From Naegleria gruberi (Eukaryota), in the NCBI GenBank assembly GCA_000004985.1, contig GG738875.1: 64,000 nt of DNA; one strand, written 5' to 3'. The translations under genes and the position numbers were made by a program. Below the pieces are notes generated by a model, which saw only the letters and a program-made list of their open reading frames with translations, was not told the origin of the DNA and ran no database searches. Numbering within the stretch: position 1 is the first letter of the stretch; the number at the start of each line of letters is the position of its first letter. Shown piece by piece: positions 1,689 through 39,129 of this stretch.

Positions 1689-4600
1689 TTATTGTTGCTC
1701 CAAATAGTTATCAGTGGATGGTTTCTTAATACGTAGAGTGTCTAACGAAGTGGAAGAATCATCAGGGACGAGACCGACAATAGAAGCTCCCACAGACATG
1801 AGTAATCGATTTTCAAAATCATTGAATTTTTGTTTTAACAGATAGGTCATCATTAAACCCTTTCCTTTCACTTCGACTTCTCTTGGTTCGTAATCATAGA
1901 GGTCGTGCACTCTTTCATAGGTTGAACGTGAAATTTGTATTCTTCCTGGTAAACTTGTTGATTCCATTCTTGAAGCAGTCTGTGAAATATGATTAATGAA
2001 AACTAACAACATTACACAACTTACATTTACAGCATCTCCCCACAAATCAAAAGCAAACTTTTTGGTTCCAATAACACCTGCAACAACACTGCCTGTGTGA
2101 ATACCCACACGGATATTGAGTTGATTGGAATATAAATTTCCAGTACTTTCATTGTAATCTTTCAATACCTTAAACATGTCAATGGCAAAATTAAGAGTTC
2201 TTTCAGGGTGGTCACTTTCTTTAGCGTCCAAATATAATCCTCCAGCAACAAAGTATGCATCTCCAATGGTCTTGATTTTTTCCAATTTGTAAATATCACA
2301 CAATGCGTCAAATCCATTTACAATGTAATTTAACATTTGAACAAGCTCAGTTGGAGAGCAATATGAAGATCGTGAGGTGAACCCAACCATATCACTGAAT
2401 AGACATGTAACATCATCAAATTTTTCTGAAATTGTTGTCTCTCCAGCTTTCAATCTATTAGCAACAGCCACTATTAAGGTTGTTCGAATTGACTATAAAA
2501 TTCAAACGACTTACCTGGCAAGATATTTAACAATAAATTCTCAGATTTCTTCTTTTCAATATTCAACAGCTCAACCGATTTCTTCTCTGATGTAATATCT
2601 CTAAAGATGGCTGTGAAAATCTTCTTTTGTTTCTTCTCCATCATTACCTCATTCTGCTGGACTTCAATTTGGGCAACTGAAATACTCATCACTATTGGGA
2701 AGGATTTACTTGCATCGAGAGTATTTGTCGAGATGGCATGTCCTCTCTTGGCATTCAACTCGACAACTTCTCCAGATGATTCAGATTGTTGAAGGTAGCT
2801 CAACTTTTCTTCCAACTTTTCCCTTTCATTTGTTGAAAAGAGAGAAGTTACAGGCGTACCGATTACTTCACTCGATGATTTGATACCCATCATTCTCAGT
2901 GCAGAAGTATTGATCATTTCAACAGTTCCTTGTGCATCAAATTGAATAACTCCTTCAATGGCAGTTGACAAGATTGCAGTCAAATTGTCAACTCTTTCTC
3001 TAGAATCAACTAAAAACTTCTTTTGTTTGGATCTTCTAAACATGTTTAAAGTGGAATACAACTGGTCATTCAGGATATATCGACTCACTTTCTGATTATT
3101 ATCCAAAACTTCCCAAGAGACATGATTAAACATTTGTCTCAATTGATAAATTTCTTGTTCATATCTAATAATTGAAGAGTATCCAATATAAGCGCATATT
3201 AAAAAAATGACAAAGAATATGACTGAAATTGAAATGGTTAACGAAAGATTCGACAGCTTGGAAAATGTTGTAATGAAAATTTCCAATGAAGTCTTGACTT
3301 TGTAATTGAATGAAGCGGCCATTTCCCAAGAAACCGAATGAAACTGTGGTAATAAAACCTGAGGAATGTATGTCTTTCTATAAGCCAATTGATTATATAA
3401 GTCAATATACACAATAAACAATTGTAATAATTGAGTAACCGACAAACATTCGAAATATTGTCGATTATTGGTAATTGTGTTATTTTCCAAAAACGATGAA
3501 AGGTCGGTAATGTTTCCACTATTTTGAAATCGAGAACAATTAGCTGGTAATATCAACTTGTCTATGTCATCACTCACCCCCAGAAGTGAAAAGTATCCTT
3601 TTGAACTATCCCCGTACAAGTAAGATTTCATATAGGTTTCAACTTCTCTCGAATGGGTCGTAATGTCCTTGTGAATTCTATCAATTTCACAGGAAAGTCC
3701 TCCCCACAATGGTTTCCAATCATTCATGAGAAGTAATTCTCCCAACTTGAACATGATTCTATTGAAAATTACCTTAATCTTTGAAGCTTGATACAATTTG
3801 TTTAGAGCCATATCTTGATTCTTCAGATTATTGTTTGTATCTACCAAGTATAAAATGATGGCCAATAAAGCAGTTAAGAAAATGATAATCACAAGCGAGA
3901 TGAGTGTTCTGGTTGGAGTGAAATAAGTGCCAATAGCAAGCGAGGTTCTATCAGAGTCAATGTTATGGGAAACTTTGGAGGTGGATGCCTTTTCAAGTGT
4001 GTGATAAATCTTTCCTGATTCTTCCTTTGCTAATCCAAAGAATAAGTGAGCTATACGTTGTTGTTTTTTGAAATAGTCAATTAGGACAACTAGAGTAATC
4101 AAACCAAGTATAAAGAAAACTCCAATCGATGCACCCATGACATACAAGAATAAATTCAGAATATTGCTCACCTTGTTGGATTTAGCTGTCAAGACATCAG
4201 AACAGACATTTTCTAAAGCATAGGCATTGTACTTTCTATTTTGCCAGAAAAAGAGAAACGACGGATTGTCCAATGTTTGTTTCACTTGAGTTTCTGTAAA
4301 ATCCTTTACTCTGTCAACATGAACATCCATCAATTCGACAATTTCCTTGATAGTTACATTTCTCTTTTCATAATTCATTGTTGAATTTTCATTAAAAGTT
4401 GTGGAGATTACTGGCATGAAAATTTCAGTTTCCTGACCTTCCCACAAATCCAAATAACCAGTCTTGTCAGTTTCTGACATTTGTTCCAAGAATGATTTGA
4501 GGTAACCCTTGTAAGTTTTCAATTTTTCTTGTTGAGTTTTTTTATAAGTTCTGGAAAAAGTCGAATTGTCCTTATCGAAATAGTAATGCCTTTGTAAAAG

Positions 4601-7159
4601 ACGAATTTCACATAGAATCAAGAAAGGATAAGGAGAGGTAGCACATAAATTCTGATAAGCAGAAAGTTCTGGATTGCTTCCAGAGCTGAGACTTCCTGTA
4701 AAAGAGTTTGAAATCATGACAGCAGCAATTAATCCACCAATCACAACCAACAAGCTCACCCATGGAAAGAACGAGGTAAAAATAATTGTAGTAGTCAAGT
4801 GACTCCTTCTTTGAATACTCTTAGTATAAGTATCTTGTTGTTTCTTGCTGAATTGCTCTTCATCATGTTGATTTTCAAATTCACAAATGTCATCAAATTT
4901 GATCTTTTTCTCTTCCTCCAATTGACTCATGCTTTCAGATACAATGATAGCTGGCACTACCCTAGAACGTCTCTTCTTTAAAGATCTCTCAGAGAAAGTT
5001 TCCAATATAGTTGGTTGTTTTGATTTGAGTTTTTGACTTTCTTCCTCTTCAATCACTGCTACAAGTTGAAGTATTTCCTTGCTCTTTTCCTTATCAAAGA
5101 TGAATTCTTCAACGAACATGGCATAGGGACGAAGTGCTGATTTGTTGTAGGAATGGAGAGCAACCAAACTTTCAAATTTGGATTTACAATGAGAGGTCAA
5201 TTTGGTAATTTTTCTATTAATGATGATGAGCTCATTCAAACTATTTTCATTATTAGTAATAACTACTTTCCAGAAGCTTTTGTGAAATTCTCTCAATTTG
5301 GATTGTTTCTTTGACAAATGTTGTAAAGTTTTTGAAATTGACTTTTCAGAATCAGCTGAAATATTCAAACTTGCCATAAGTTGAGTTTCAATTTCAGATC
5401 TTCTCACAGAGCCAACATATTTTTCAAATATTGATGGCTTGCACATGTACATTCTCTTGAGTAAATACAGTGCAATATTCAAATTTGTCTTGGCATGATG
5501 TTGTGTTTGATCCAATTTATGATATCTGACATAATTGACAATTGCTAAACAAATAGATGCAGAGCTGTATTCACTTTTGTGACGAATTGATCCTCTAATG
5601 ATGGCACTTATAATTCTACATTTGGTCGAAGGTGGATTATCGTTGTTCTCATCAACAATAGTTCTCTGTCGTGAATTGTATTCTGATGAACAGAATCGAA
5701 TGGCCATTTCCAAGTTTGCTTCACCAATTTCTTCTAATAAATCAGGTGTGAGAGCAATTTCACTTGTATTACCAGAATCTAATAGAGGTGAGCATATTTT
5801 CTTCACTACTTTTGTGGCTCTTCTTGTATAAATGTCCATAATTGTAACACCAACTGTTAAGAATATTAAGAAACCACCAATGGCAGCTCCCCAATAAATT
5901 ACACCATTCGTGGACAGGACATCTACTGTGTTAGTGTCAATATTTACAATTGAACATGTCAAGCTCACAATATTCTGTCCAACTATTCCAAACATGATGC
6001 CGGCCATGTAAGAATTCTCAGATCTAACATTGAATGGAACAATAATGAAAATCAAAACAGCCAATATAAGGAATAGAAAGAGTGAAAATGATGGAAACAG
6101 GTATGGAAATGATGAATAATTTGGAATCATTTGAGAGTACCAATAGAACAGCATCATGACCAAATTGACCACCGAAATGAACACTGGACTTTTCGATGAG
6201 AAGAATGAAGCTCTCCTCTTCAGCAAACCATGCCCACTCCCTGATGTTGAGTACAGTAATGAATCTGTCTCTATAACTCCGAATAGGAACAATAAGACAA
6301 TCAACACTTGTGGCCAAATGTGAATAACAGAGAGGGCAGCAAACACAGCATTCATTGGTCCCCAACATTCAACTTGTGAATAATCCCTCAAGTAGAATGT
6401 ACCTCCATCACTTCCAGAGGAATTTATCTTCTCCGTATAATCACAACTCCAAAAAGAACTGAACAAGTGAGTGATTGGCAAGTTAAGGATGAAAAGGGCA
6501 ATTACCAGGAATCGGCTTAATTGTTTAGACCTACGCTTAAATTTCACAAATCCAACCAGATATCCCTTGTATTCAATATAGGTGTGAAGTATCAGAAACC
6601 AGTGGATAACAAACACTATCACCGACAAGACAACCACAGCCACATGAGGAATAAAGTGGAATCCAAACGTGATGAGTGTTTTGAAAAAGTAGAGATTAAT
6701 GTCGTGTGCAATTTGACCCCACTGCACAAATGGAATGAATCCTAGTGCAATTAACTGCAACGGAAGTAAAATTCCATGTGTGAAGAGTGGTAACAAGTGT
6801 GGAATGATTGATTTACCCAATTGATGATGTAAAGTACTAGAATTTGAAAATTTAAAAGTTTGAATGAGGGAGGTGATTCTCTCCTCGACTCTTGGCTTGG
6901 AAGATATCAGCAAATCTGAAGAAAAGGACATTGAAGTATCGGCAAGTGATATAGTATCATCCTGTTGATAACTAGCAGTTCCAGTATTATTATTAATCAT
7001 ATTAGCATTTGATGAAGAACTATTGAAGGGAGTAAAATCATTATTTGAATCCACAAGTAATTGATTTGAAGATGAGGAGGAAACTAGTGCAGCAGTAGCA
7101 GCAGTTGCATTAGTGGTTGAGAATGAACTACTTGAACGATGCATCGCTTTAAACTCCAA
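1689..7159 (-). CDS. Multi-pass membrane class III adenylate/guanylate cyclase with a PAS domain; three exons, approximately complement(2515..7159), complement(2026..2470), complement(1689..1980)
   Basis: The large ORF has an S-rich N-terminus, many hydrophobic helices, then a PAS-like segment (LTAILSTAIEGVIQFDAQGTVEMINTSALRMMGI) and a coiled linker. It ends at ...LLNILPG followed immediately by gtaagt. A 44-nt intron (about 2471-2514) joins it in phase to VAVANRLKAGETTISEKFDDVTCLFSDMVGFT, which matches the guanylyl-cyclase-type linker plus the cyclase-domain start. Cyclase motifs are present: KIKTIGDAYFVAGG and DLWGDAVNV//ASRMESTS. The ASRMES motif is interrupted by a 45-nt in-frame GTAAGT...CAG intron at about 1981-2025. 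There is no histidine-kinase H-box or HATPase motif. Confidence 0.75.
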
Positions 7160-7430: not shown

Positions 7431-7916
7431 ATGGAGAGGGAAAAGCTATTAAGGGAATCTGAGATGTTGAAAAATCTAGCTTTCAAAATTTCTGCTGATT
7501 ACTACGAACGGGAATACTATGGATTCAATTTCATTGTAAATTCTCAAATTTTTCCAATAAAGTTTAATCTCCATGATCAGACTCTATTTGGACCTGTACG
7601 AACTTCAGTTTATTTCAGTTTATTTCATATTATATTGGATATTGTTTCATGTTTCCTCTTAGATTCATTCTTCAACAGTTGTGGTAAATACAATCCAATC
7701 GATCTCCACTTGGAAGCACACAAGTTCATCTCTATTTGGAAGAGAGCAGGATTACAACCTGTCCGTCACTTGTCTGACACAGAAACCAAATCTCAAAAAA
7801 ATGTCTTTTGGTTGGAAGTTCTACCACTTTTGTTGTGCCGTCATGTCTTTCATCATATGCTTCATCCTTCCGTTCTTTATTGTGGTTTGGGAACAGTTTG
7901 TTTGTGCATTCTATAA
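7431..7916 (+). CDS. hypothetical small protein; the overlapping 7681..8085 ORF is an alternative
   Basis: Two overlapping ORFs with hydrophobic stretches lie between the cyclase gene and tRNA-Ala. There is no recognisable motif, and a cagtttattt x2 mini-repeat sits inside. The gene model is uncertain. Confidence 0.15.
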   Translation: MEREKLLRESEMLKNLAFKISADYYEREYYGFNFIVNSQIFPIKFNLHDQTLFGPVRTSVYFSLFHIILDIVSCFLLDSFFNSCGKYNPIDLHLEAHKFISIWKRAGLQPVRHLSDTETKSQKNVFWLEVLPLLLCRHVFHHMLHPSVLYCGLGTVCLCIL

Positions 7917-8119
7917 CAACAAGGCAAATGCAAAAAATACAACCACATGTTCAATATGGTCATCTGTTTCAACAAAGTGGACAATTGCAATATTTATTCT
8001 AACTCTATGTGGTTATTTACCTGGAGTGATTGCAGCTTTTATTTATGCGTTTGTGGCTGGAAGAGTATCATGGATTCCACAATAAAAAGTTCATATGTAA
8101 AATTGTTTGGGGACAAAAA

Positions 8120-8155
8120 TGGAGTCATAGGGAATCGAACCCTAGACCTTCTGCA

Positions 8156-8186
<31 letters not shown>

Positions 8187-8192
8187 AACCCC
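8120..8192 (-). tRNA. tRNA-Ala (anticodon UGC)
   Basis: The reverse complement reads GGGGTTATAGCTCAGTTGGTAGAGCGTCTGCTTTGCATGCAGAAGGTCTAGGGTTCGATTCCCTATGACTCCA. It has a 7-bp acceptor stem with a G3:U70 wobble, which is the alanine identity element. Anticodon loop is TTTGCAT and the T-loop is GGTTCGATTCC. A T5 run follows on the minus strand, consistent with a Pol III terminator. No CCA is encoded. Confidence 0.9.
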
Positions 8193-9249
8193 CTCATGTT
8201 CGAGTTACAAAAGCAATAAGTAAACCCATGGAGTGTTGTTGGATTCGGAAAACTTTGCTCATTGCCCCTGAATTGGTATGAATGCAATAGCTTATTTGTT
8301 TAGGGAAATAGTAGTTGTATGGACTTAGTATAAAGAAATATTTTGTAAATTACGCGAAAAAGAACCTCAAAATTGAGGTTTGACCAGAGCCATTTGAAGT
8401 TGGGTGGGTTATATTAATAAACGAACCAGAAATTCATTAAAAACCTATTACGAAGATGGTGCTCAATTAATAATTAATCATTGAGCCACATTCATATGTT
8501 TTTTCTCAATTTTCAAAATTAGAAAAAATTTGATTCGGATTACTTGTGAAACGAGTTATCAATAATTTGTGTGGATTGAATCATCAGTAACATTACTATA
8601 ATTTGTAATATTATTATTATTTATTAAATATAATTGAATCAAAATAATGAGGAAATTTTCGCAAGCCTCCTCCTCTCTTTTAAAGTGGAGTTGCAAGAGC
8701 TCTAAATCCCGATTCATTCCATCATCATTCTCTCATTTAAAAACATCCAATAATAATATTAATATTATTAATAATCATGAAAGTAAGAGAAATCTCTCCA
8801 ACAATACCAACAACTCGCCTCCATCACTCTGTAAGTTTTCATCAATTAATTTTAGAAATTTGGAGAATTAAACACTTTTCCACTCAATTCCAAAAACCTA
8901 CCCACACCTCTTCAATCCAAATAATATCAAATGATGAATTTAAATTCTTCAAGACCAACCTTGCACCATCAACAATACCTCAAACAACACCCAAAATTCT
9001 ATTATTATTATTGAAAGCCTCCTTCAACAACAATTTCAGCCAACTAATTTAAAGCGCGAGACCTCTTTCGGTACTGATGCACCAACAACACTTCGAAAAA
9101 ATATTTCCAAACAACTCTTGAAGGAATACTCTCTCGCCGCTGCTAATCATCGTTCAGTGCAAGAATTATCCACTATTACTTCTAGAGGTCAAATACGTAG
9201 TTACAGTTCATCTTCATCATCATCAAAATATACAATTTGGATACCTCCA

Positions 9250-15855: not shown

Positions 15856-16968
15856 ATGACATTGGTTGAAGCTGTTCATCTTGACAATCATGGAGAAAAT
15901 AATAGTATTATGAATACGATTAGTTATCATACTATTGATGCAATATTTGGACTGTATGGTTCTAATAATTCTTTCAGATATACTGTTCATCCTCATAATA
16001 CCTCTTCTCCACCTCATAACTTTCCTCTCATTATGGGAAGTGAGGAGCCAGCACCATTTAGAAGAGTTAATTGGTCTATTCATGATACTATTACCATGTT
16101 AACAATGGCCATTGTTATATTCATGACAAGGAAAATATTATATGAGAAAGTCCTCAATCCAATGATGAGAAATAACAGATTTAATGTTATTGCACCACTT
16201 ACTAGAGCCAGATTCAAGGAGAATGTTTGGTTCTTTTCCTACTACTTGTTTGCAACAATTCTAGGTTATTCAATTTTGAGTGAAACCTCATGGTTTAATA
16301 ATGCATCATTTTGTGTGTTGGAGTATCCACATGGTCATACTGGATACGAAACACCTTACTTTAGATATTACATGTTGATGGGATGTGCTTTTTATGTGCA
16401 AGCTCTCTTTACTTTACTGTTTGTGGATGAAAAATTGTCAGACTTTTTGGAAATGGTAGTACATCACATTGCAACAATCATGTTAATTTCCTTCTGTTTA
16501 ACTTCTAGTCATCATCGTGTTGGAAGTATAGTATTGATTTTACATGATTTTGTAGATATTTTCCTCTATGGAGCTAAAGCTTTCCATCACTTGAAAAACG
16601 AAACCATGTCAACAGTTCTCTTTATTGCCTTTACACTTGCCTTCTTTTGCATGAGATTGGTTCTCTTACCTTACATTATTTATTTGGCAGCTGCCAATTT
16701 TCATGGATGGGACGATCCTTCAAGATATTACATTTTCCGATATGTTTCAGACTCTATCTTTCCAGCTGAAGTTAGTGATTATGGATGTTGTATTCTGAAA
16801 TATTGTGCAAGCACTTACTGGTTATTAATTGTATTGTTATGTTTATTGGTTTTGTTGCATGTATTTTGGTTTTATTTGGTTTTGAGAATATTGGTAAGGA
16901 CTATTAGAGGTACTACATTGGCTGACATTCGTGAGGATGATGGAGAGGGACATGAACATCAGGATTAA
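15856..16968 (+). CDS. TLC-domain protein, LAG1/ceramide-synthase-like
   Basis: Multi-pass membrane protein carrying the Lag1p motif region VVHHIATIMLISFCLTSSHHRVGSIVLILHDFVDIFLYGAKAF. Confidence 0.65.
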   Translation: MTLVEAVHLDNHGENNSIMNTISYHTIDAIFGLYGSNNSFRYTVHPHNTSSPPHNFPLIMGSEEPAPFRRVNWSIHDTITMLTMAIVIFMTRKILYEKVLNPMMRNNRFNVIAPLTRARFKENVWFFSYYLFATILGYSILSETSWFNNASFCVLEYPHGHTGYETPYFRYYMLMGCAFYVQALFTLLFVDEKLSDFLEMVVHHIATIMLISFCLTSSHHRVGSIVLILHDFVDIFLYGAKAFHHLKNETMSTVLFIAFTLAFFCMRLVLLPYIIYLAAANFHGWDDPSRYYIFRYVSDSIFPAEVSDYGCCILKYCASTYWLLIVLLCLLVLLHVFWFYLVLRILVRTIRGTTLADIREDDGEGHEHQD

Positions 16969-17080
16969 ATGGATTTTGTTCATTAAAATTCATTGTTTAT
17001 TAATCCCAACTCCTCTTCGCACATTTAACAAAATGGCAGAAACCCTGTTGACTTTACCTTCTTTAGATTAGAGAATGTAA

Positions 17081-17161
17081 GTTGAGGTGGCCGAGTGGTT
17101 AAGGCGCCAGCCTGCTAAGTTGGTGGAGTAATCCGCGTGGGTTCGAATCCCATCCTCAACG
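17081..17161 (+). tRNA. tRNA-Ser (anticodon GCU)
   Basis: GTTGAGGTGGCCGAGTGGTTAAGGCGCCAGCCTGCTAAGTTGG...GGTTCGAATCCCATCCTCAACG. Anticodon loop is CTGCTAA, there is a long variable arm typical of type II tRNAs, and a GTGGNNTAAGGC D-loop. A T-rich stretch lies downstream. Confidence 0.9.
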
Positions 17162-17467
17162 TTTTCTTCTAGTAACTTTTTTTGAAAATTCACAATATAA
17201 AGGACATTCATCATTCTGTCTGTAAATTTAATTATTAAAAAATATACATTCAAACTGATCAACTAGTTCATCTTACTTGATATGTTTATCATGATAAACA
17301 CATGTTGCATGGTGGAGAGAAGGTCTTTAAGGGTGTGAAGTATATTATGAGATCAGATATAATGTATTCGAAACGTGAAGAATTAAAATACTAATTTCTT
17401 CTCTTGAATAATGATAAACTTGACAAACTATTCGAATCATAGTATTGAATATTCCAATAAAACTAAT

Positions 17468-31200: not shown

Positions 31201-34200
31201 TTACATGACAAGGCAGTTCAATAATCCTTGCCTTTGAGGTGGCTGTGGTTGCGGATTGTTTGGTTGTGGTTGCTGTAGTTGTTGTGGTTGTGGAGGAATA
31301 ATGAGAGGCCTTATTCTGGCTGGCACTGGTTGAGGGTTTGGTTGCGGAATTAATTGAAGAGGTATTTGATTATTCACAGGAGGATTTACTTGTCTTGGAC
31401 GAATAATTTCAGGAGGAACATCAAAAGTAAGGCAAGAACCAGCTCTAAAATGTGCATAAGTTGCTTGTCCTGTTGCAAATCCTTTCAAACATAACCAACA
31501 AAAATGTTGTCCGCAATAACAACAAGCTAAAATAAGTGAACAAGTGAGCTCACTAATAAATAGATTCAAAAACTTACTCATATGATTGCATCCTTCACTC
31601 TTTTCAATTCGTTGGGAACAACTTGGGCATGGCTTTGTTTTGGTATTCATCCACTCTCTTGTTTTGTCCTCGTCTCCACATTTTTGTCCCTTGTGTGATT
31701 TCTTTTCACATTCCTTACAAAAACTCAAGTTACAGGTTTGGCAAATAATGTCTGAACCATCAATTCGACAAACAGATCCACAATTTTTTGGGCAATACTT
31801 GTATGATTCTGGATTTTCTAGCAAAAAGTCCTCTAATGCTTTTGTATATGTCTTCTCTTGTTTGGTTTCGAGGTACATCAATATTTCAGAAATGGATAAA
31901 TCCATTTCACAACATGAACAAACAAAGCTATTTGGATTTTGAATTTGAAAACGAAAACAATCTTTGCAAATCTCGTGGTTACATCCTATTGTTCTGAAAG
32001 GATTTGTCATTCTCTCAAAACAAATTGGGCAATCGTCATCAGTGTGTTCAACGTTATGGTTTTGTTCATAATTTTCCATCAATTCAGTCACATATTGTTG
32101 AATAGCATGTTGGTCCTTTTCGTTACCATCCACTATTAATTCCTTGGTTTTGACATTTAAAGAAATATCACAATTAGCAAACTGTGTTTTAAGCTCTTGG
32201 AATGGTTTTCCTGCATTTCCTGTTATGGATTTTAAATATTTGAGATGAATCGTTAAAGTTTTAGAGTGACCTTCCACAAGCTGCATGATTTCCTCTTTGG
32301 CGTTGTGTTTGTCATCAATCAATCCAAAAATTTCTATTGTTCTGGTCTTGGAGTTTATAGAAATAAATACTTGATTCCTGTTTTCAATTTGGTCAAGTTG
32401 CTTTCTTTTTCTAGAAGCGTATTGGATTGTTTGATGAGTGAGGTGTAATGATAATGGCTTCACAAGGGCAACAACATTCTTTTTGGCTTCATTAAAATCT
32501 TCCAGGTTAGCAGATTGAATCGAAATTTCAGTTTTGTAATTTTCTGCATTTTTGCGCGAAGTATTATATTTGATTTTTGCCTTACAGTTATCAATCAAGC
32601 ATTGTAATTCAAATTTCAAAAGTTCAGTTACTTCTGTTGGTACTGTAACTGAATCTCTGTGAATAGAATTGGCCCATAAAATTGCTCCCATAAATTTTGT
32701 GGAATTTAGAGCTTGTGCAGCGCTTTTAGCATCTTTTTGATCAGTAAAACAAACCAAAGCTTCTCCAAATTGTTTATACGTATCTATATTCAAAATGTCC
32801 AGAAATTCAAGACTCTGGAATGATTGAACTTTAGAAAGTAATACTCCTTGGATTAAATCATTCTCTACTACAACTGGACGTCTTAGAATAGAGACGAAAT
32901 GATAATCAATATGTCTATTATCCAGTAATACTTTAACAAATTTTGCATCGATATGGTCGTAAATATTGCGTATCTCAAGAGTGTCCTTGTTCTTCGTTTT
33001 TTTAATCTGGAATCTGAGTCCAGCTGGTCCTAATTGTGATGAAAATATTCTATCATGCGTAATATTATTAATAGTGGCAGAATTATTCCCATTTTTAAAA
33101 CCAATCAAGCAATATCCGTTATTTGGGCCTATATTCCATTTTAATCGAACCAACGCAGATTCATTACTACTTTTGGTGTTAAATAGAACAGGAGTTAATT
33201 TGTAAGTTTCTTTGAATTTGTGATAAACTGTAGTTGCAACAGAAAAGTTTGTAAATACTACGTAGCCACTAGCAAATGAATCATTAGGTAAAGAGGAATA
33301 AACACGTGCATCAAGTGTATGGTATGGTAGAAACAAGTTTCTTAAAGTATCGTCATCACAACCTAATGGTAGATTATCGACCTGAAGTTTAGTAAACTCG
33401 TTTGGGAATATTAATCCTTTCACTTTACAACCACTTGATACCATGATTCGTAATCCACTCGAATCATCATCCAATCCATTTTCAATTTCCAATTCTAAAA
33501 TTTGAGATAAAGCCCTCTTTTTTGCTATTTCTATTACTTCCTTAATTTGAGAAATAATGTTAAATCTTTCGCCTTGATCACAGTAGACCTTAATTGAAGA
33601 ATCTGTTGAATCAATTTCTATTACATGCCCTAACTGTCTTTCAACTTCTTCAATGAATTCTGTGTTTCTAAATTTTAAATCTTCACTAACTATTGAAGGT
33701 AATTTCACTCTGAGTTCTTCTTTAACTTTACTGACAATCATATTGGTTTCTAGTTGTGGATAAAAATGAAGTATTTCCTTCAAATCAATTGGTGTAATAT
33801 TCCTCATATAGAGCTTGTCAGTTCTAACTAGATCTGAAAATAGTATGAAAGGTTTAGGATCTCCCAAAAATTGATGAGATGAGTTATGTATAAATGCTCG
33901 TTGCTTTAGAGAGGGAATGTAATACACTTTTGTCATATTTGGCAAATATCCGTCAAAATAGGCAAGGTTTTGATATTGGCTTTCAATTATACTTTCTTTC
34001 AAAAGTTGTTCTTTTGAAATACATTCCTTTCTAATTATTCTTTTCTTTTTAAAGAAATTGATTTTGTTCTTAAAATCCTTCAAGTTCATTTCAGCATTCT
34101 TTAGGTATTGAACATTAATATTATTTTTTAAGGACCATTCCTCTTTGTTGGACTGTTGTGAATACTCTTGAAATATTTGTAACAGAGAAAACAAATCTCC

Positions 34201-36411
34201 ACCATCATTATGAAATAAACTCTTGCTCAACAATTTTGCTTGTGATTTTTTAAACAAAATATCAGATATACTCATCATTGAAACAATAATAACCATTAAA
34301 TCAGCTACACCCTTCAAATTTGCTTGAATAATCATTCTAGACAGTGTTGGTTCTGTCTGTAACTCACAAGCCATAGTGCCAAACTCAGTGATGACACCTT
34401 CATGAACAAAGCCAAGCTTTTCCAGAGATCCAACCTCTTTAGTGATTCTTTCTATGGATGGCATTTCTAATAGTTCAAAAGCGTTTATATCGGTAACACC
34501 ACATGATAATATTTGCAAAATAGATATACCAAGATGACTTCTCATAATTTCAGCTTCTGAAGCTAATTTCATTCTCTGATATTCTACTTGTGGATATAAT
34601 CTATAACATATTCCAGAACTATTTCTTCCTACTCTTCCTTTCCTTTGCAGAGCACAGGATTGAGAGATGGAAACAGTTTTAAGTATTGACATATTCCTGT
34701 CATTATCATAGAATTTTTGTCTCATTAATCCAGAGTCTATAACTATTCTTAATGAAGGAATAGTAATGGATGTTTCTGCAACATTTGTCGAAAATATAAT
34801 CTTTCTCATAGACTTTGATTGATCGAAAATCTTTTTCAATTCAAAACTATCAATTTTTCCATGTAGAGCAATTATTTGGCAAGACGTTCCAAGGCTCTTT
34901 TTAGCCATTTTGCAACATTTGGTAACATCTTCTCTAGATGCAAGAAAAACCAGAATATCTCCTTCATGTAGATTATTCTTGACAATGTCAGTAACCTTTC
35001 TAGTTGCCTGTTCACAAGTATTTGCTTCTCTTGAATGAGAGAAATACTCCACAACAGGGTAACTTTGATGTTCTAGTTTCTTGATTGGGCAGTTATCAAA
35101 AAACATTGAAAACAAATCTTCATTGATTGTTGCAGAGGATATCAAGACTTTTAAGGGATTGTTCAAAGCTCTTCTTCTCTTTACACAATCCTTTAATAAT
35201 GAAAGTAGAATATCGGTATAAATTGATCTTTCATGCGCTTCATCAACAATAATAATAGAATAACTTAATAGGAGTTGATCATTCTGATACTCATTCAATA
35301 AACAACGATCTGTGACAAAATTAATAGATACTCTGTTGTTCCTTTTCCTTTTCTCGCCAAGCTTGCATGAAACAATAGATTTATCTCTCAATTCTTCAGA
35401 AACTCTATTAGCAAGAGTGATACAGGTCAATTTTCTGGGTTGTGTGCATGCTATTGATTTATAGCCATGTTCTAAAAGATACTGAGGAATTTGGGTACTC
35501 TTTCCAGCACCAGTAGAACAACTACAAATAACAACATCATTCTGGTCCAATAATTCCAAAATTTCGTTCCTTATCGAATAAATTGGGAGTCTGTTGGTGG
35601 TAATCCTTCCACATTCAATCTCTGTGGCCTTTAGCTTTTGCACCATACTGGTGGTTGATTGGAGAATTAGCTTCATTCTTGCGGAGAATGTTTTGCATTG
35701 ATTCTCTATCATTTTCAAATCATTAATTAATATTTGTACCTTTTCCAAGTACTTTTGATAGTCAAACGTTTTAACAAGATGATGTTTGCTTTTGTTAATT
35801 TCCTCTTCCTTTTCCTTTAGCACATTCAAAGCCTGTACTATCTTGGTATCAATCAAATTCTTTAATTTTTCATTACTATCTTGTTTGACGACACGTGTAG
35901 TTTTTTGCTGTTGTGGTTGTATAGTACTACTATTTTGTGCTGCATTTTCCTGTTGTTTTAATTTTGGTTGTTGAACAAGCTTTGCTTTCTTATTTTTCTT
36001 TTTTTTTAAATTATTTTCTAAAAGTTGTTTTGGTGGGTTTTCTTGTGAAACATATTGTTGTTTGTTTTCAACTTGGTTAATGATGGTTGGTGAAGACAAT
36101 TTGCTTGTGAATGCTCCATTTTGTTGGTGATTTGAAGTTGCAAACTTTTTTCTTCTCTCCTCCTTTTTGATTTGATTGGAAGGAACTAGAGTTGATGTGT
36201 TTTTGCTGAGTTTGCTATTATTTGGATTATTCGATGATGTTATTTTGGAGGATGATGGAGTAGTGTCCTCATTATCATTGGTACTTTGTTTGATTGGTTC
36301 TGTAACTACTTTGTCTATTACCTTGACAAACAACTTTCGTTGTTGCGGTTTCTTCTTCTTCTTGATTGCTGGATCATGCTCCACATTCACAGGGCTTGGT
36401 TTTGTATCCAT
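31201..36411 (-). CDS. DEAH-box helicase fused to a C-terminal RING-between-RING (RBR) E3 ligase module
   Basis: The 1736-aa protein has a low-complexity K/N/Q-rich N-terminus. Helicase motifs are CSCSTGAGKST (Walker A) and IIVDEAHERS (DEAH), plus the HA2/OB region. The C-terminus carries CPICFERM...CNHEICKDCF (RING1), an IBR Cys/His cluster and CPSCSQRIEKSEGCNHMSK (RING2-like). Confidence 0.8.
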   Translation of the reverse strand: MDTKPSPVNVEHDPAIKKKKKPQQRKLFVKVIDKVVTEPIKQSTNDNEDTTPSSSKITSSNNPNNSKLSKNTSTLVPSNQIKKEERRKKFATSNHQQNGAFTSKLSSPTIINQVENKQQYVSQENPPKQLLENNLKKKKNKKAKLVQQPKLKQQENAAQNSSTIQPQQQKTTRVVKQDSNEKLKNLIDTKIVQALNVLKEKEEEINKSKHHLVKTFDYQKYLEKVQILINDLKMIENQCKTFSARMKLILQSTTSMVQKLKATEIECGRITTNRLPIYSIRNEILELLDQNDVVICSCSTGAGKSTQIPQYLLEHGYKSIACTQPRKLTCITLANRVSEELRDKSIVSCKLGEKRKRNNRVSINFVTDRCLLNEYQNDQLLLSYSIIIVDEAHERSIYTDILLSLLKDCVKRRRALNNPLKVLISSATINEDLFSMFFDNCPIKKLEHQSYPVVEYFSHSREANTCEQATRKVTDIVKNNLHEGDILVFLASREDVTKCCKMAKKSLGTSCQIIALHGKIDSFELKKIFDQSKSMRKIIFSTNVAETSITIPSLRIVIDSGLMRQKFYDNDRNMSILKTVSISQSCALQRKGRVGRNSSGICYRLYPQVEYQRMKLASEAEIMRSHLGISILQILSCGVTDINAFELLEMPSIERITKEVGSLEKLGFVHEGVITEFGTMACELQTEPTLSRMIIQANLKGVADLMVIIVSMMSISDILFKKSQAKLLSKSLFHNDGGDLFSLLQIFQEYSQQSNKEEWSLKNNINVQYLKNAEMNLKDFKNKINFFKKKRIIRKECISKEQLLKESIIESQYQNLAYFDGYLPNMTKVYYIPSLKQRAFIHNSSHQFLGDPKPFILFSDLVRTDKLYMRNITPIDLKEILHFYPQLETNMIVSKVKEELRVKLPSIVSEDLKFRNTEFIEEVERQLGHVIEIDSTDSSIKVYCDQGERFNIISQIKEVIEIAKKRALSQILELEIENGLDDDSSGLRIMVSSGCKVKGLIFPNEFTKLQVDNLPLGCDDDTLRNLFLPYHTLDARVYSSLPNDSFASGYVVFTNFSVATTVYHKFKETYKLTPVLFNTKSSNESALVRLKWNIGPNNGYCLIGFKNGNNSATINNITHDRIFSSQLGPAGLRFQIKKTKNKDTLEIRNIYDHIDAKFVKVLLDNRHIDYHFVSILRRPVVVENDLIQGVLLSKVQSFQSLEFLDILNIDTYKQFGEALVCFTDQKDAKSAAQALNSTKFMGAILWANSIHRDSVTVPTEVTELLKFELQCLIDNCKAKIKYNTSRKNAENYKTEISIQSANLEDFNEAKKNVVALVKPLSLHLTHQTIQYASRKRKQLDQIENRNQVFISINSKTRTIEIFGLIDDKHNAKEEIMQLVEGHSKTLTIHLKYLKSITGNAGKPFQELKTQFANCDISLNVKTKELIVDGNEKDQHAIQQYVTELMENYEQNHNVEHTDDDCPICFERMTNPFRTIGCNHEICKDCFRFQIQNPNSFVCSCCEMDLSISEILMYLETKQEKTYTKALEDFLLENPESYKYCPKNCGSVCRIDGSDIICQTCNLSFCKECEKKSHKGQKCGDEDKTREWMNTKTKPCPSCSQRIEKSEGCNHMSKFLNLFISELTCSLILACCYCGQHFCWLCLKGFATGQATYAHFRAGSCLTFDVPPEIIRPRQVNPPVNNQIPLQLIPQPNPQPVPARIRPLIIPPQPQQLQQPQPNNPQPQPPQRQGLLNCLVM

Positions 36412-36591: not shown

Positions 36592-37062
36592 ATGGGGAAC
36601 GTACAAGAACCAGCTAAACCTGCCGTTGCAAAACAACAAATAATTACTGGTTGTTTATCGGAATTCATGAAAACCGTTCCTATCGAGATTAAACTTTATA
36701 CATTTTCATATGTTCCGATGGAGGATTTTCCCAAATTACTGCTCATTACCAAACCACTAAAGAATTCAATACTAAGGAATGATGAAATATTTGTATTTTA
36801 TTATAAAGATTTTAGAGAAAGGGCACTAATTGAAATATCAAAGCTAAATGGAACAATTAACATGGGGCCAAGATTGGATATAGAAGTTAGCGATGAAATG
36901 TTTAATCCATCTCTTCCTCTTAGTATTGATCAAGTTCAAACCAAATCGAATAGTCAGAAGATATCGAAAAATTACAAAAAATTACAACAAGTTGTACAGA
37001 ATCACATTGCATTGAGAAATAGTATTGAGAGATTGACTGTTAGTGTAAAGGCTCCAAAGTAA
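36592..37062 (+). CDS. small F-box-like protein, paralog of 25535..25999, with an N-terminal Met-Gly
   Basis: MGNVQEP...KTVPIEIKLYTFSYVPMEDFPKLLLITKPLKNSIL aligns with the 25535..25999 product across the F-box-like region. Confidence 0.5.
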   Translation: MGNVQEPAKPAVAKQQIITGCLSEFMKTVPIEIKLYTFSYVPMEDFPKLLLITKPLKNSILRNDEIFVFYYKDFRERALIEISKLNGTINMGPRLDIEVSDEMFNPSLPLSIDQVQTKSNSQKISKNYKKLQQVVQNHIALRNSIERLTVSVKAPK

Positions 37063-37422: not shown

Positions 37423-39129
37423 ATGATATCAACAAAAAGTGAATCATCACACTTACAAGACATAACAATTGAACAACCATTGAAAAACAAGACAAACCTT
37501 CCTTGTTACATTATCAAGAATTTTCTCACACCGAAAGAATGTTCGGAATTTATTGAAAAAGCTGTGAAAATTGGATTTGATTTGGCCTCTCATGATTACC
37601 CACCTTCCTACAGAAATAATGAGAGAATTATAATGGATGACGAAGAGTTGGCAGAGAAAATGACCAAGAAATTGAAACCAATGCTTGATAGTTTGAATTT
37701 AGTGGAATTTGAAAAGGATGGATTGGAATGTGAATTGAAAAGTGTCAATTCTAGATTTAGATTGTGTAGATATCAAGAAGGACAAGAATTTAGAATTCAT
37801 CAAGATGGTGTTCATTACAAATCAAAGTTTGTCAAGTCAATTTTGACATTTATGATTTATTTGAATGAAGAATTTGATAATGGACATACAATTTTCTTCA
37901 AGTCTGGACCTTCCTCAAACCCTCCAGAAGAAATGGGAAAATACAAACCTCAATGTGGTGATTTGATAGTATTTGATCATGAATTGTGGCATTCTGGAGA
38001 AATTGTCAATAATGGTATCAAATATGTCATGAGGAGTGATATCATTTATGATACTATCCCTATTAGTTTTGGAAATAATTCAATCGGAACAATGGAATCA
38101 TTGGAAAATTCGAACAATTGGAATAATTCTCACAATGGATATGTTTGGAAATTAATCAAGGTTGGAAAAGATGATTCCTTAATTGCTAGCGGAGGAAGAG
38201 ACACCACTATAAATATTTTCAACGAATCACTGCAAATCCAATTCAAACTTGAGGGTCACCAAAAATCAGTGCTTGGCTTATCGAAAATGGCAAATAATCA
38301 AATGGTTTCCATTTCCAGAGACCGATCAATTAAGATTTGGGACCTGGAAACGAGAGAATGTATTTTCACCAAAGAGCAAGCTCACAATCATACAGGATTA
38401 TGTGTAGAAGCGGATCCTTTTGATTCTTCAATAATTGCTTCTGGCTCTGCTGATTGTATCATCAAACTTTGGAAATTTGTTGATGGAAAATTAGAATTGT
38501 CCAAACAATTTAACGGCCACAATGGATGGATTTGGTCTTTGAAATGGATTACAATTGAAGGAGAGAGGATGCTCTTGTCTGCATCTGAGGATGGATCCAT
38601 ACGAGTCTGGAATAGTGAAACTGGCTCGTGTCACATTATTGATCAATTACAAAATCCTCTTAGGTGCCTTACTACTTTTAATTATCCAAATTCACAAATG
38701 GACACCATTATTTGTCTTGGAGACAATGAAGGCAATCTCTATCTCTATTATGTAAAAGGGGGTTTTAGTAATTTTAGTACGAAACGAACAGAATTCAAGA
38801 ACTTGCACAGGGCCTCAATAAGAACTGTTAAATTTATTAGTTCTCACATGATTGTAACAGGCTCTGAAGACTATTCTGTAATGTTATGGAAACTGAAGCA
38901 TGAGCTTTCCTCAATACCTCAACTACATCATGTCTATACCTTCAATCACAATAATTTTGTCACAGACTGTCTCTCACAATTTCACAATGAACAACAAGCA
39001 CAAGAGGAGGATAATCAATTCGCCTCCTTCTTCACTTCCTCCTATGATGGCGCCATTAAGAAACACCAAGTATCACTCTCATCGACAAGTCTTTCTTTAA
39101 CTTTGCTTGGCATGATTGGTACCAATTAA
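37423..39129 (+). CDS. 2-oxoglutarate/Fe(II) prolyl-4-hydroxylase-like domain fused to WD40 repeats
   Basis: The N-terminal domain has the P4H-type facial triad RIHQDG (HxD)...ELWHSGE (distal His)...KYVMRSDIIY (2OG-binding basic residue) and no signal peptide. The C-terminal half has six or more WD-like repeats (SGGRDTTINIF, SISRDRSIKIWDL, SGSADCIIKLW, SASEDGSIRVW, TGSEDYSVMLW). Confidence 0.7.
   Translation: MISTKSESSHLQDITIEQPLKNKTNLPCYIIKNFLTPKECSEFIEKAVKIGFDLASHDYPPSYRNNERIIMDDEELAEKMTKKLKPMLDSLNLVEFEKDGLECELKSVNSRFRLCRYQEGQEFRIHQDGVHYKSKFVKSILTFMIYLNEEFDNGHTIFFKSGPSSNPPEEMGKYKPQCGDLIVFDHELWHSGEIVNNGIKYVMRSDIIYDTIPISFGNNSIGTMESLENSNNWNNSHNGYVWKLIKVGKDDSLIASGGRDTTINIFNESLQIQFKLEGHQKSVLGLSKMANNQMVSISRDRSIKIWDLETRECIFTKEQAHNHTGLCVEADPFDSSIIASGSADCIIKLWKFVDGKLELSKQFNGHNGWIWSLKWITIEGERMLLSASEDGSIRVWNSETGSCHIIDQLQNPLRCLTTFNYPNSQMDTIICLGDNEGNLYLYYVKGGFSNFSTKRTEFKNLHRASIRTVKFISSHMIVTGSEDYSVMLWKLKHELSSIPQLHHVYTFNHNNFVTDCLSQFHNEQQAQEEDNQFASFFTSSYDGAIKKHQVSLSSTSLSLTLLGMIGTN

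Follow-up and report, generated by a model that had tools for sequence, protein, structure and literature searches.

A prolyl 4-hydroxylase-like oxygenase joined to a WD40 propeller in Naegleria gruberi belongs to a conserved, mostly bacterial family

The gene and its two domains

The 64,000-nucleotide stretch of Naegleria gruberi DNA analysed here (NCBI GenBank assembly GCA_000004985.1, contig GG738875.1; hereafter the window) includes a complete single-exon gene whose product joins a prolyl 4-hydroxylase (P4H)-like 2-oxoglutarate (2OG)/Fe(II) oxygenase domain to a C-terminal WD40 propeller (Table 1). A preliminary description, made from the DNA letters, had proposed that one uninterrupted open reading frame (ORF) joins both domains, and this holds to the exact coordinates: the ORF list has a single frame over the whole gene with zero internal stops, and its product is identical to N. 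gruberi EFC43157.1 / XP_002675901.1 / UniProt D2VJ99 (NAEGRDRAFT_50003, "predicted protein"). Two independent assemblies (Logan, ENA) contain near-identical variants of 557 amino acids (aa; P0009 and P0010, in the same 90% cluster), which end 11 residues earlier than the 568-aa protein and keep the frame unbroken across both halves. The gene lies on a scaffold of 396 kb and is compositionally native to Naegleria and fully host-adapted, with a guanine-plus-cytosine (GC) content of 0.348 (window, 0.342) and a third-position GC of 0.316, like its neighbours. The flanking genes are typically eukaryotic: one encodes a DEAH helicase of 1736 aa that includes an IBR domain, the other a nucleotidyl cyclase of class III.

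Pfam assigns the N-terminal half of the protein to PF13640 (2OG-FeII_Oxy_3; residues 114-203, 41.3 bits against a cutoff of 27). A sequence search of the PDB with the N-terminal 239 residues returned the P4H of Bacillus anthracis (PDB code 3itq, E 1.5e-5) and Dictyostelium PhyA (PDB code 6t8m, E 1.6e-3). The double-stranded beta-helix fold is structurally nearest to prolyl hydroxylases: the ranked neighbours (score in brackets) are PBCV-1 collagen prolyl hydroxylase (18.0; 29% identity), Chlamydomonas P4H (17.4), human P4H-TM (16.9), OGFOD1 (16.8), Pseudomonas PPHD (16.5), PiuC (16.3), PolD (15.9), viral lysyl hydroxylase (15.8), DdPhyA (15.3) and PHD2 (14.2), and Foldseek is in agreement. The P4H-type pattern of the preliminary description, HxD...H...basic residue, corresponds to H126-Q-D128, H190, K200 and R204. 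K200 is located ten residues beyond H190 (+10), where B. anthracis P4H has the Lys of its "GEKWI" in the alignment, and R204 is a second invariant basic residue at +14; K200 is predicted to be the ligand of the 2OG C5-carboxylate, as in collagen-type P4Hs. Because the iron triad of 3itq is matched in the alignment by H126, D128 and H190 and its 2OG-binding Lys by K200, and because all four are invariant in an alignment of 96 family members, we assign the domain to the P4H-like oxygenases of the collagen-type Lys-at-+10 arrangement and predict it to be catalytically active.

The same alignment has 27 invariant columns, and about 40 more positions in the catalytic domain show 80-100% conservation across the range from bacteria to Naegleria. 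A further motif, N109-x-R-x-R-x-C115-x-Y117, is invariant, and together with the YPxSYRNNxR signature (Table 1) it distinguishes this subfamily from the characterised P4Hs. As had been proposed, the N-terminus has no signal-peptide-like hydrophobic core (maximum Kyte-Doolittle mean of 0.49 over 15 residues), and no transmembrane-like stretch is evident elsewhere in the 568-aa protein.

The C-terminal half matches PF00400 (WD40; 91.6 bits against a cutoff of 27) and many other propeller families over residues ~232-520. An AlphaFold2 model of the full-length protein, built from the 96-sequence alignment, has a predicted local distance difference test score (pLDDT) of 89.7 and a predicted template modelling score (pTM) of 0.89. 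It displays an alpha/beta plus jelly-roll part (residues ~26-213), a low-confidence linker, a propeller and a disordered tail. Between residues 241 and 551 the model has 27 strands arranged as seven blades, which makes the earlier estimate of at least six WD40 repeats exactly seven. Foldseek searches with the propeller returned beta-TrCP and LIS1 at E about 1e-15, as well as designed propellers. The pTM of 0.89 for a two-domain protein is taken to imply that the oxygenase and the propeller have a defined orientation in the modelled structure.

Table 1 Features of the oxygenase-WD40 gene and its product, with the upstream neighbour and one bacterial example. Positions are those of the window, except for the bacterial locus L028.
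Feature	Residues	Position	Strand	Remarks
Complete single-exon gene, oxygenase-WD40 protein	1-568	37423..39129	+	568 aa; ATG start; stop codon 39127-39129
P4H-like 2OG/Fe(II) oxygenase domain	26-213	37498..38061	+	Double-stranded beta-helix core and N-terminal alpha/beta region
Family signature Y59-P-P-S-Y63-R64-N-N66-E-R68	59-68	37597..37626	+	Y59 in 99%; P60, Y63, R64, N66 and R68 invariant (96 sequences)
H126-Q-D128, first two predicted Fe(II) ligands	126-128	37798..37806	+	Invariant, 96/96; aligned to HxD of B. anthracis P4H
H190, predicted distal Fe(II) ligand	190	37990..37992	+	Invariant, 96/96; aligned to distal His of 3itq
K200-Y-V-M-R204	200-204	38020..38034	+	K200 and R204 both invariant in 96 sequences
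Linker, variable, low-confidence, Asn/Ser-rich	214-236	38062..38130	+	pLDDT 55-76; length differs among alignments
Seven-bladed WD40 propeller	237-551	38131..39075	+	PF00400; 27 strands, mostly pLDDT >90; Foldseek
Propeller blades	about 241-277, 283-317, 327-364, 370-408, 413-458, 466-508, 513-551
C-terminal tail, non-conserved, disordered	552-568	39076..39126	+	pLDDT <50 for residues 556-568
Upstream neighbour, 1736-aa protein		31201-36411	-	DEAH-type helicase core (DEAD, Helicase_C, HA2, OB), RRM and C-terminal IBR/RING-between-RING-like region
Example bacterial neighbourhood, L028 (loci L003-L064)		3227-3844 and 5398-6051	- and +	TetR/HD-like flanking genes

Extent and ancestry of the family

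An exhaustive HMMER search of 1.84 billion representatives with residues 1-230 as the query returned 4105 hits at E<=1e-3, 111 of them at E<=1e-30. Among the best 150 of the 4105 hits, ~126 are at least 430 aa long, and the oxygenase is N-terminal in nearly all. Pfam was run on 96 of these best hits (about 430-690 aa), and every one has PF13640 and WD40 in the same order as the Naegleria protein. A bacterial homologue of 505 aa, P0011, whose gene adjoins a TetR gene on metagenomic contigs, aligns over Naegleria residues 14-517 with 33% identity (E 2e-84). A pattern scan for the YPxSYRNNxR-type signature, using one genome per bacterial species, gave 62 bacterial loci, most with full-length matches. 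The carriers include Pseudomonas, Undibacterium, Achromobacter, Massilia, Chitinimonas, Lysobacter, Dyella, many Myxococcales, Acanthopleuribacter, Sericytochromatia and Vulcanimicrobiota; Burkholderiales are among the groups with relatives, and a relative from Pseudoalteromonas is annotated merely as "2OG-Fe(II) oxygenase".

In all, the family comprises more than 100 sequence clusters; its members come from Naegleria, from several phyla of bacteria and from at least one further lineage that is eukaryote-like. The domain junction is spanned by alignments with homologues from more than 90 protein clusters. The fusion is thus genuine and old, and it defines a conserved, mostly bacterial family that is uncharacterised. 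Since the fusion is common along its whole length to so large a family, both domains work as one unit.

The preliminary description had called the fusion unusual. This stands in that a hydroxylase-WD40 architecture has no characterised precedent, but not as a statement about frequency, the combination being common in bacteria. No curated NCBIfam model matches the oxygenase-WD40 family, no solved structure with both domains was present among the Foldseek and PDB matches, and literature searches found nothing on the protein or its architecture, its Pfam names, its accessions or COG4339. A plasmid search yielded one stand-alone oxygenase only and no fusion. What was available before is an unnamed predicted protein in databases, with both Pfam domains found by routine annotation, and what is new is a family for which we found no characterised member. 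A role in phage defence was also considered and set aside: PADLOC gave only generic domain-level matches (a Cas-associated "2OG" model and a WD40-containing model), which we do not take as evidence.

The search for the same fusion in other protists, which the preliminary description had called for, returned a small set of proteins. The closest relative of all is a 498-aa protein (P0013) with 55% identity over the oxygenase part and 41% over the trimmed full-length alignment, encoded on an AT-rich 1.8-kb contig with untranslated flanks. A second protein with the same domain order (P0122; 720 aa, with low-complexity inserts) comes from contigs with long intergenic gaps. The eukaryote-like metagenomic contig of P0122 (L066) also has a second gene 1.6 kb downstream (7710-8585, + strand), which encodes a 291-aa protein with a weak PF13640 match.

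Elsewhere the oxygenase subfamily is found in other contexts. It stands alone in Balamuthia, Acrasis, Tieghemostelium, Aplanochytrium and many Bacteroidota, and in a distant eukaryotic paralogue (P0155) it lies between a borderline rhodanese match (22.1 bits, cutoff 22.2) and an F-box (23.1 bits, cutoff 20.5). Two further eukaryotic paralogues, N. lovaniensis XP_044545732 (P0134) and P0127, have the reversed order, with the WD40 propeller preceding the oxygenase. Because their propellers are similar to that of N. gruberi at a generic level only, the reversed-order fusion looks independent of the N. gruberi one. The recurrence of such arrangements suggests that the oxygenase domain has been recruited repeatedly to protein-recognition modules in eukaryotes, and recurrent fusions to WD40 and F-box domains fit with protein targeting.

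A neighbour-joining tree groups Naegleria with P0013 at a bootstrap of 100/100. As the fusion is broad in bacteria and scarce in eukaryotes, bacterial ancestry is the likelier origin, and the Naegleria copy is probably the product of an old horizontal transfer. The tree itself is less favourable to this reading: the placement of Naegleria beside a proteobacterial group has a bootstrap of just 34/100, which does not pick out a donor lineage, and we therefore claim none.

The bacterial members frequently share a gene neighbourhood (Table 1). A TetR gene is present in 41 of the 62 bacterial loci, and in 37 it is divergent and directly upstream; this TetR neighbour has a BetI-type C-terminal domain. 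A gene for an HD-like protein of ~200 aa is present in 27 loci; in 16 it follows the TetR gene, and in 10 it comes straight after the oxygenase gene. One relative (P0014) has the HD-like domain as a C-terminal fusion to the oxygenase-WD40 protein itself. The ~200-aa protein has the motifs H..YH...H, WFHD and D-x-D. Sources name its family "predicted metal-dependent HD superfamily phosphohydrolase" or misname it "NMDAR2C subunit"; no Pfam or NCBIfam model covers it, and its sole match in the PDB, the uncharacterised BH2835 (PDB code 3dto), is non-significant (E 0.51). In the Naegleria window, tblastn found no HD-like homologue, and the flanking ORFs have no TetR or HD domains. The neighbourhood is not family-defining, since 19 of the 62 bacterial loci, mostly from Myxococcales, also have neither neighbour.

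The propeller face and a proposed function

Conservation in the propeller extends beyond the structural GH/D residues: Y240, W242, R259, R299, W369, W371, E482, F512 and Y541 are each present in 82-100% of the 96 sequences. Y240 and W242 are in blade 1, three and five residues past H237, and R259 and R299 immediately precede the Asp of blades 1 and 2, respectively; W369 and W371 are in blade 4, E482 in blade 6, and F512 and Y541 in blade 7. In WD40 proteins, the positions +3 and +5 after the GH motif and the position before the blade Asp are binding hotspots of the top face. We infer from these positions that the conserved residues line the top face of the propeller, and a surface that combines aromatic residues with Arg and Glu and is shared by organisms from Myxococcales to Naegleria would imply one specific, conserved ligand.

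We propose that the protein is a cytosolic, catalytically competent Fe(II)/2OG-dependent hydroxylase of the P4H-like clade, connected by a short linker to its seven-bladed propeller. The top face of the propeller would dock one specific partner (most probably a segment of protein or peptide), and a residue of the docked partner would be presented to the catalytic site for hydroxylation; to judge by the nearest structural relatives, proline is the likeliest residue. These relatives speak for a peptide substrate, as do the usual ligands of WD40 top faces and the recurrence of WD40 and F-box fusions in protists. We assign a probability of about 0.5 to this reading, an active hydroxylase whose propeller docks its (peptide) substrate. 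Several points weigh against it: the literature searches turned up no substrate, partner or activity for any family member; a neighbourhood of TetR and HD-type genes is seen more typically with small-molecule or nucleotide metabolism than with protein modification; and the top-face placement of the conserved residues is read from sequence positions. A wider proposal, which we offer as a speculative and rather unlikely extension, is that a hydroxylase built into a recognition module, with the propeller selecting a protein motif, would constitute an unrecognised oxygen- or 2OG-dependent protein-modification pathway of bacteria and amoebae, possibly feeding ubiquitin-ligase-type recognition in eukaryotes.

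The bacterial neighbourhood is the starting point for the most substantial alternative, which we regard as possible but doubtful: that the substrate is a small molecule or nucleotide-derived, that the propeller is a scaffold, oligomerisation surface or regulatory domain, and that the bacterial genes belong to a ligand-inducible pathway with an HD-type metal-dependent hydrolase. The divergent TetR genes, the adjacent HD-like genes, the HD-like C-terminus of P0014 and the phosphohydrolase name of the HD-like family would all fit such a pathway, and the structural neighbours of the oxygenase include PiuC, PolD and PasI. In phosphonate breakdown, a 2OG oxygenase is paired with an HD-domain enzyme (PhnY/PhnZ and TmpA/TmpB). 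However, the nearest structural relatives are peptide hydroxylases, WD40 top faces mostly bind peptides or proteins, and the eukaryotic subfamily recurs with WD40 and F-box domains; moreover, the window has no HD-like gene, and nearly a third of the bacterial loci have neither neighbour. Very unlikely, in our judgement, is that the protein is an orthologue of the oxygen-sensing prolyl hydroxylases (PhyA or PHD/EGLN) with an added propeller. Although it falls into the same broad P4H-like clade and likewise has no signal peptide, these enzymes are not its closest relatives by sequence or structure. In the PHD/PhyA type, an Arg at +9 from the distal His is the 2OG ligand, whereas the N. gruberi protein has no Arg at about +9 and instead displays the collagen-P4H arrangement of a Lys at +10, with R204 at +14; the family also has its own invariant YPxSYRNNxR signature, and the nearest homologues are bacterial and have this fusion too.

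Loss of catalytic residues, which would leave a dead pseudo-enzyme using the oxygenase fold as a binding module, is highly improbable. N. gruberi does have N153 in the GG-x-T motif, where 97% of the family has Gly, but the metal and 2OG ligands are intact in all 96 members, and their conservation together with that of the ~40 further positions from bacteria to Naegleria points to selection on catalysis. An artefact, in which a sequencing or annotation error had fused neighbouring genes or bacterial DNA contaminated the assembly, has a negligible probability. The closest full-length relatives are bacterial, but contamination and a merged gene model are excluded by the continuous frame in the two other assemblies, the eukaryotic flanks on a 396-kb scaffold and the native GC and third-position GC. 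A missed stop or intron is excluded because bacteria, which have no introns, have collinear full-length homologues: both the protein clusters and the 62 bacterial genomes align across the junction.

Comparison with known systems shows which parts of this proposed arrangement have precedents. The collagen-type, viral and algal P4Hs (PBCV-1 vCPH, PDB code 5c5t; Chlamydomonas Cr-P4H-1, PDB codes 2jig and 3gze; B. anthracis P4H, 3itq) have 20-29% identity to the oxygenase over ~160 residues, whereas the N. gruberi subfamily has its own YPxSYRNNxR and NxRxRxCxY motifs, would be cytosolic and has a fused WD40 propeller. PHD2/EGLN1 and Dictyostelium PhyA are likewise cytosolic P4H-like 2OG oxygenases, theirs being known to modify a specific protein, and PHD2 too has an accessory targeting domain, MYND. 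The ribosomal prolyl hydroxylases OGFOD1 and Tpa1 (PDB codes 4nhx and 4nhk; 12-14% identity) are two-domain enzymes as well, but their second domain is a non-catalytic oxygenase-like fold and not WD40. The same concept is present in the alpha subunit of collagen P4H, in which a catalytic domain and a dedicated peptide-substrate-binding repeat domain are on one polypeptide. That binding domain, however, is helical (TPR-like) and N-terminal, in an endoplasmic reticulum tetramer with PDI, whereas the N. gruberi protein has a C-terminal propeller and is predicted to be cytosolic.

The best Foldseek matches to the C-terminal half, beta-TrCP/FBXW11, FBXW7 and LIS1, are seven-bladed (FBXW7 eight-bladed) and bind peptides at their top faces through Arg and aromatic residues. 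Identity to them is ~20%, at the generic WD40 level. Unlike these receptors, the N. gruberi protein has no F-box or LisH; residues 1-213 consist of a short N-terminus and the oxygenase, and among the best 25 of 39 Pfam matches there is no F-box N-terminal to the propeller, where the oxygenase and a 23-residue linker are located instead.

P4H-like 2OG oxygenases underlie oxygen sensing (HIF, Skp1), collagen maturation and ribosome hydroxylation, and how they find their substrates is a central question. In the family described here, the catalytic domain is permanently tied to a propeller with a nearly invariant predicted binding face, which could serve as bait for a new hydroxylation substrate; in bacteria, genetic work could start from the TetR and HD-type genes linked to it, and the Naegleria gene is a candidate ancient bacterial acquisition. 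The family is a good target for substrate discovery, although current understanding is not overturned.

Neighbouring sequence in the window

The upstream 1736-aa neighbour (Table 1) has in its own right a helicase-ubiquitin-ligase combination. Between it and the oxygenase-WD40 gene lies a 156-aa ORF (36592-37062), which was considered as an F-box partner and rejected, there being no Pfam support.

Farther upstream stands a lone in-frame fragment, "YHDKHMLHGGEKVFKGVKYIMRSDIMYSKREELKY*" (17284-17392, +). By tblastn (E 1.5e-4) it corresponds to the C-terminal end of this oxygenase subfamily, including the distal His, the Lys and RSD. No upstream exons for it were found in 16700-17283, and it appears to be either the remnant of a paralogue or an orphan terminal exon. 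A tRNA-Ser gene (anticodon GCT; 17081-17161, +) is located between this fragment and an ORF for a 370-aa multi-pass membrane-like protein (15856-16968).

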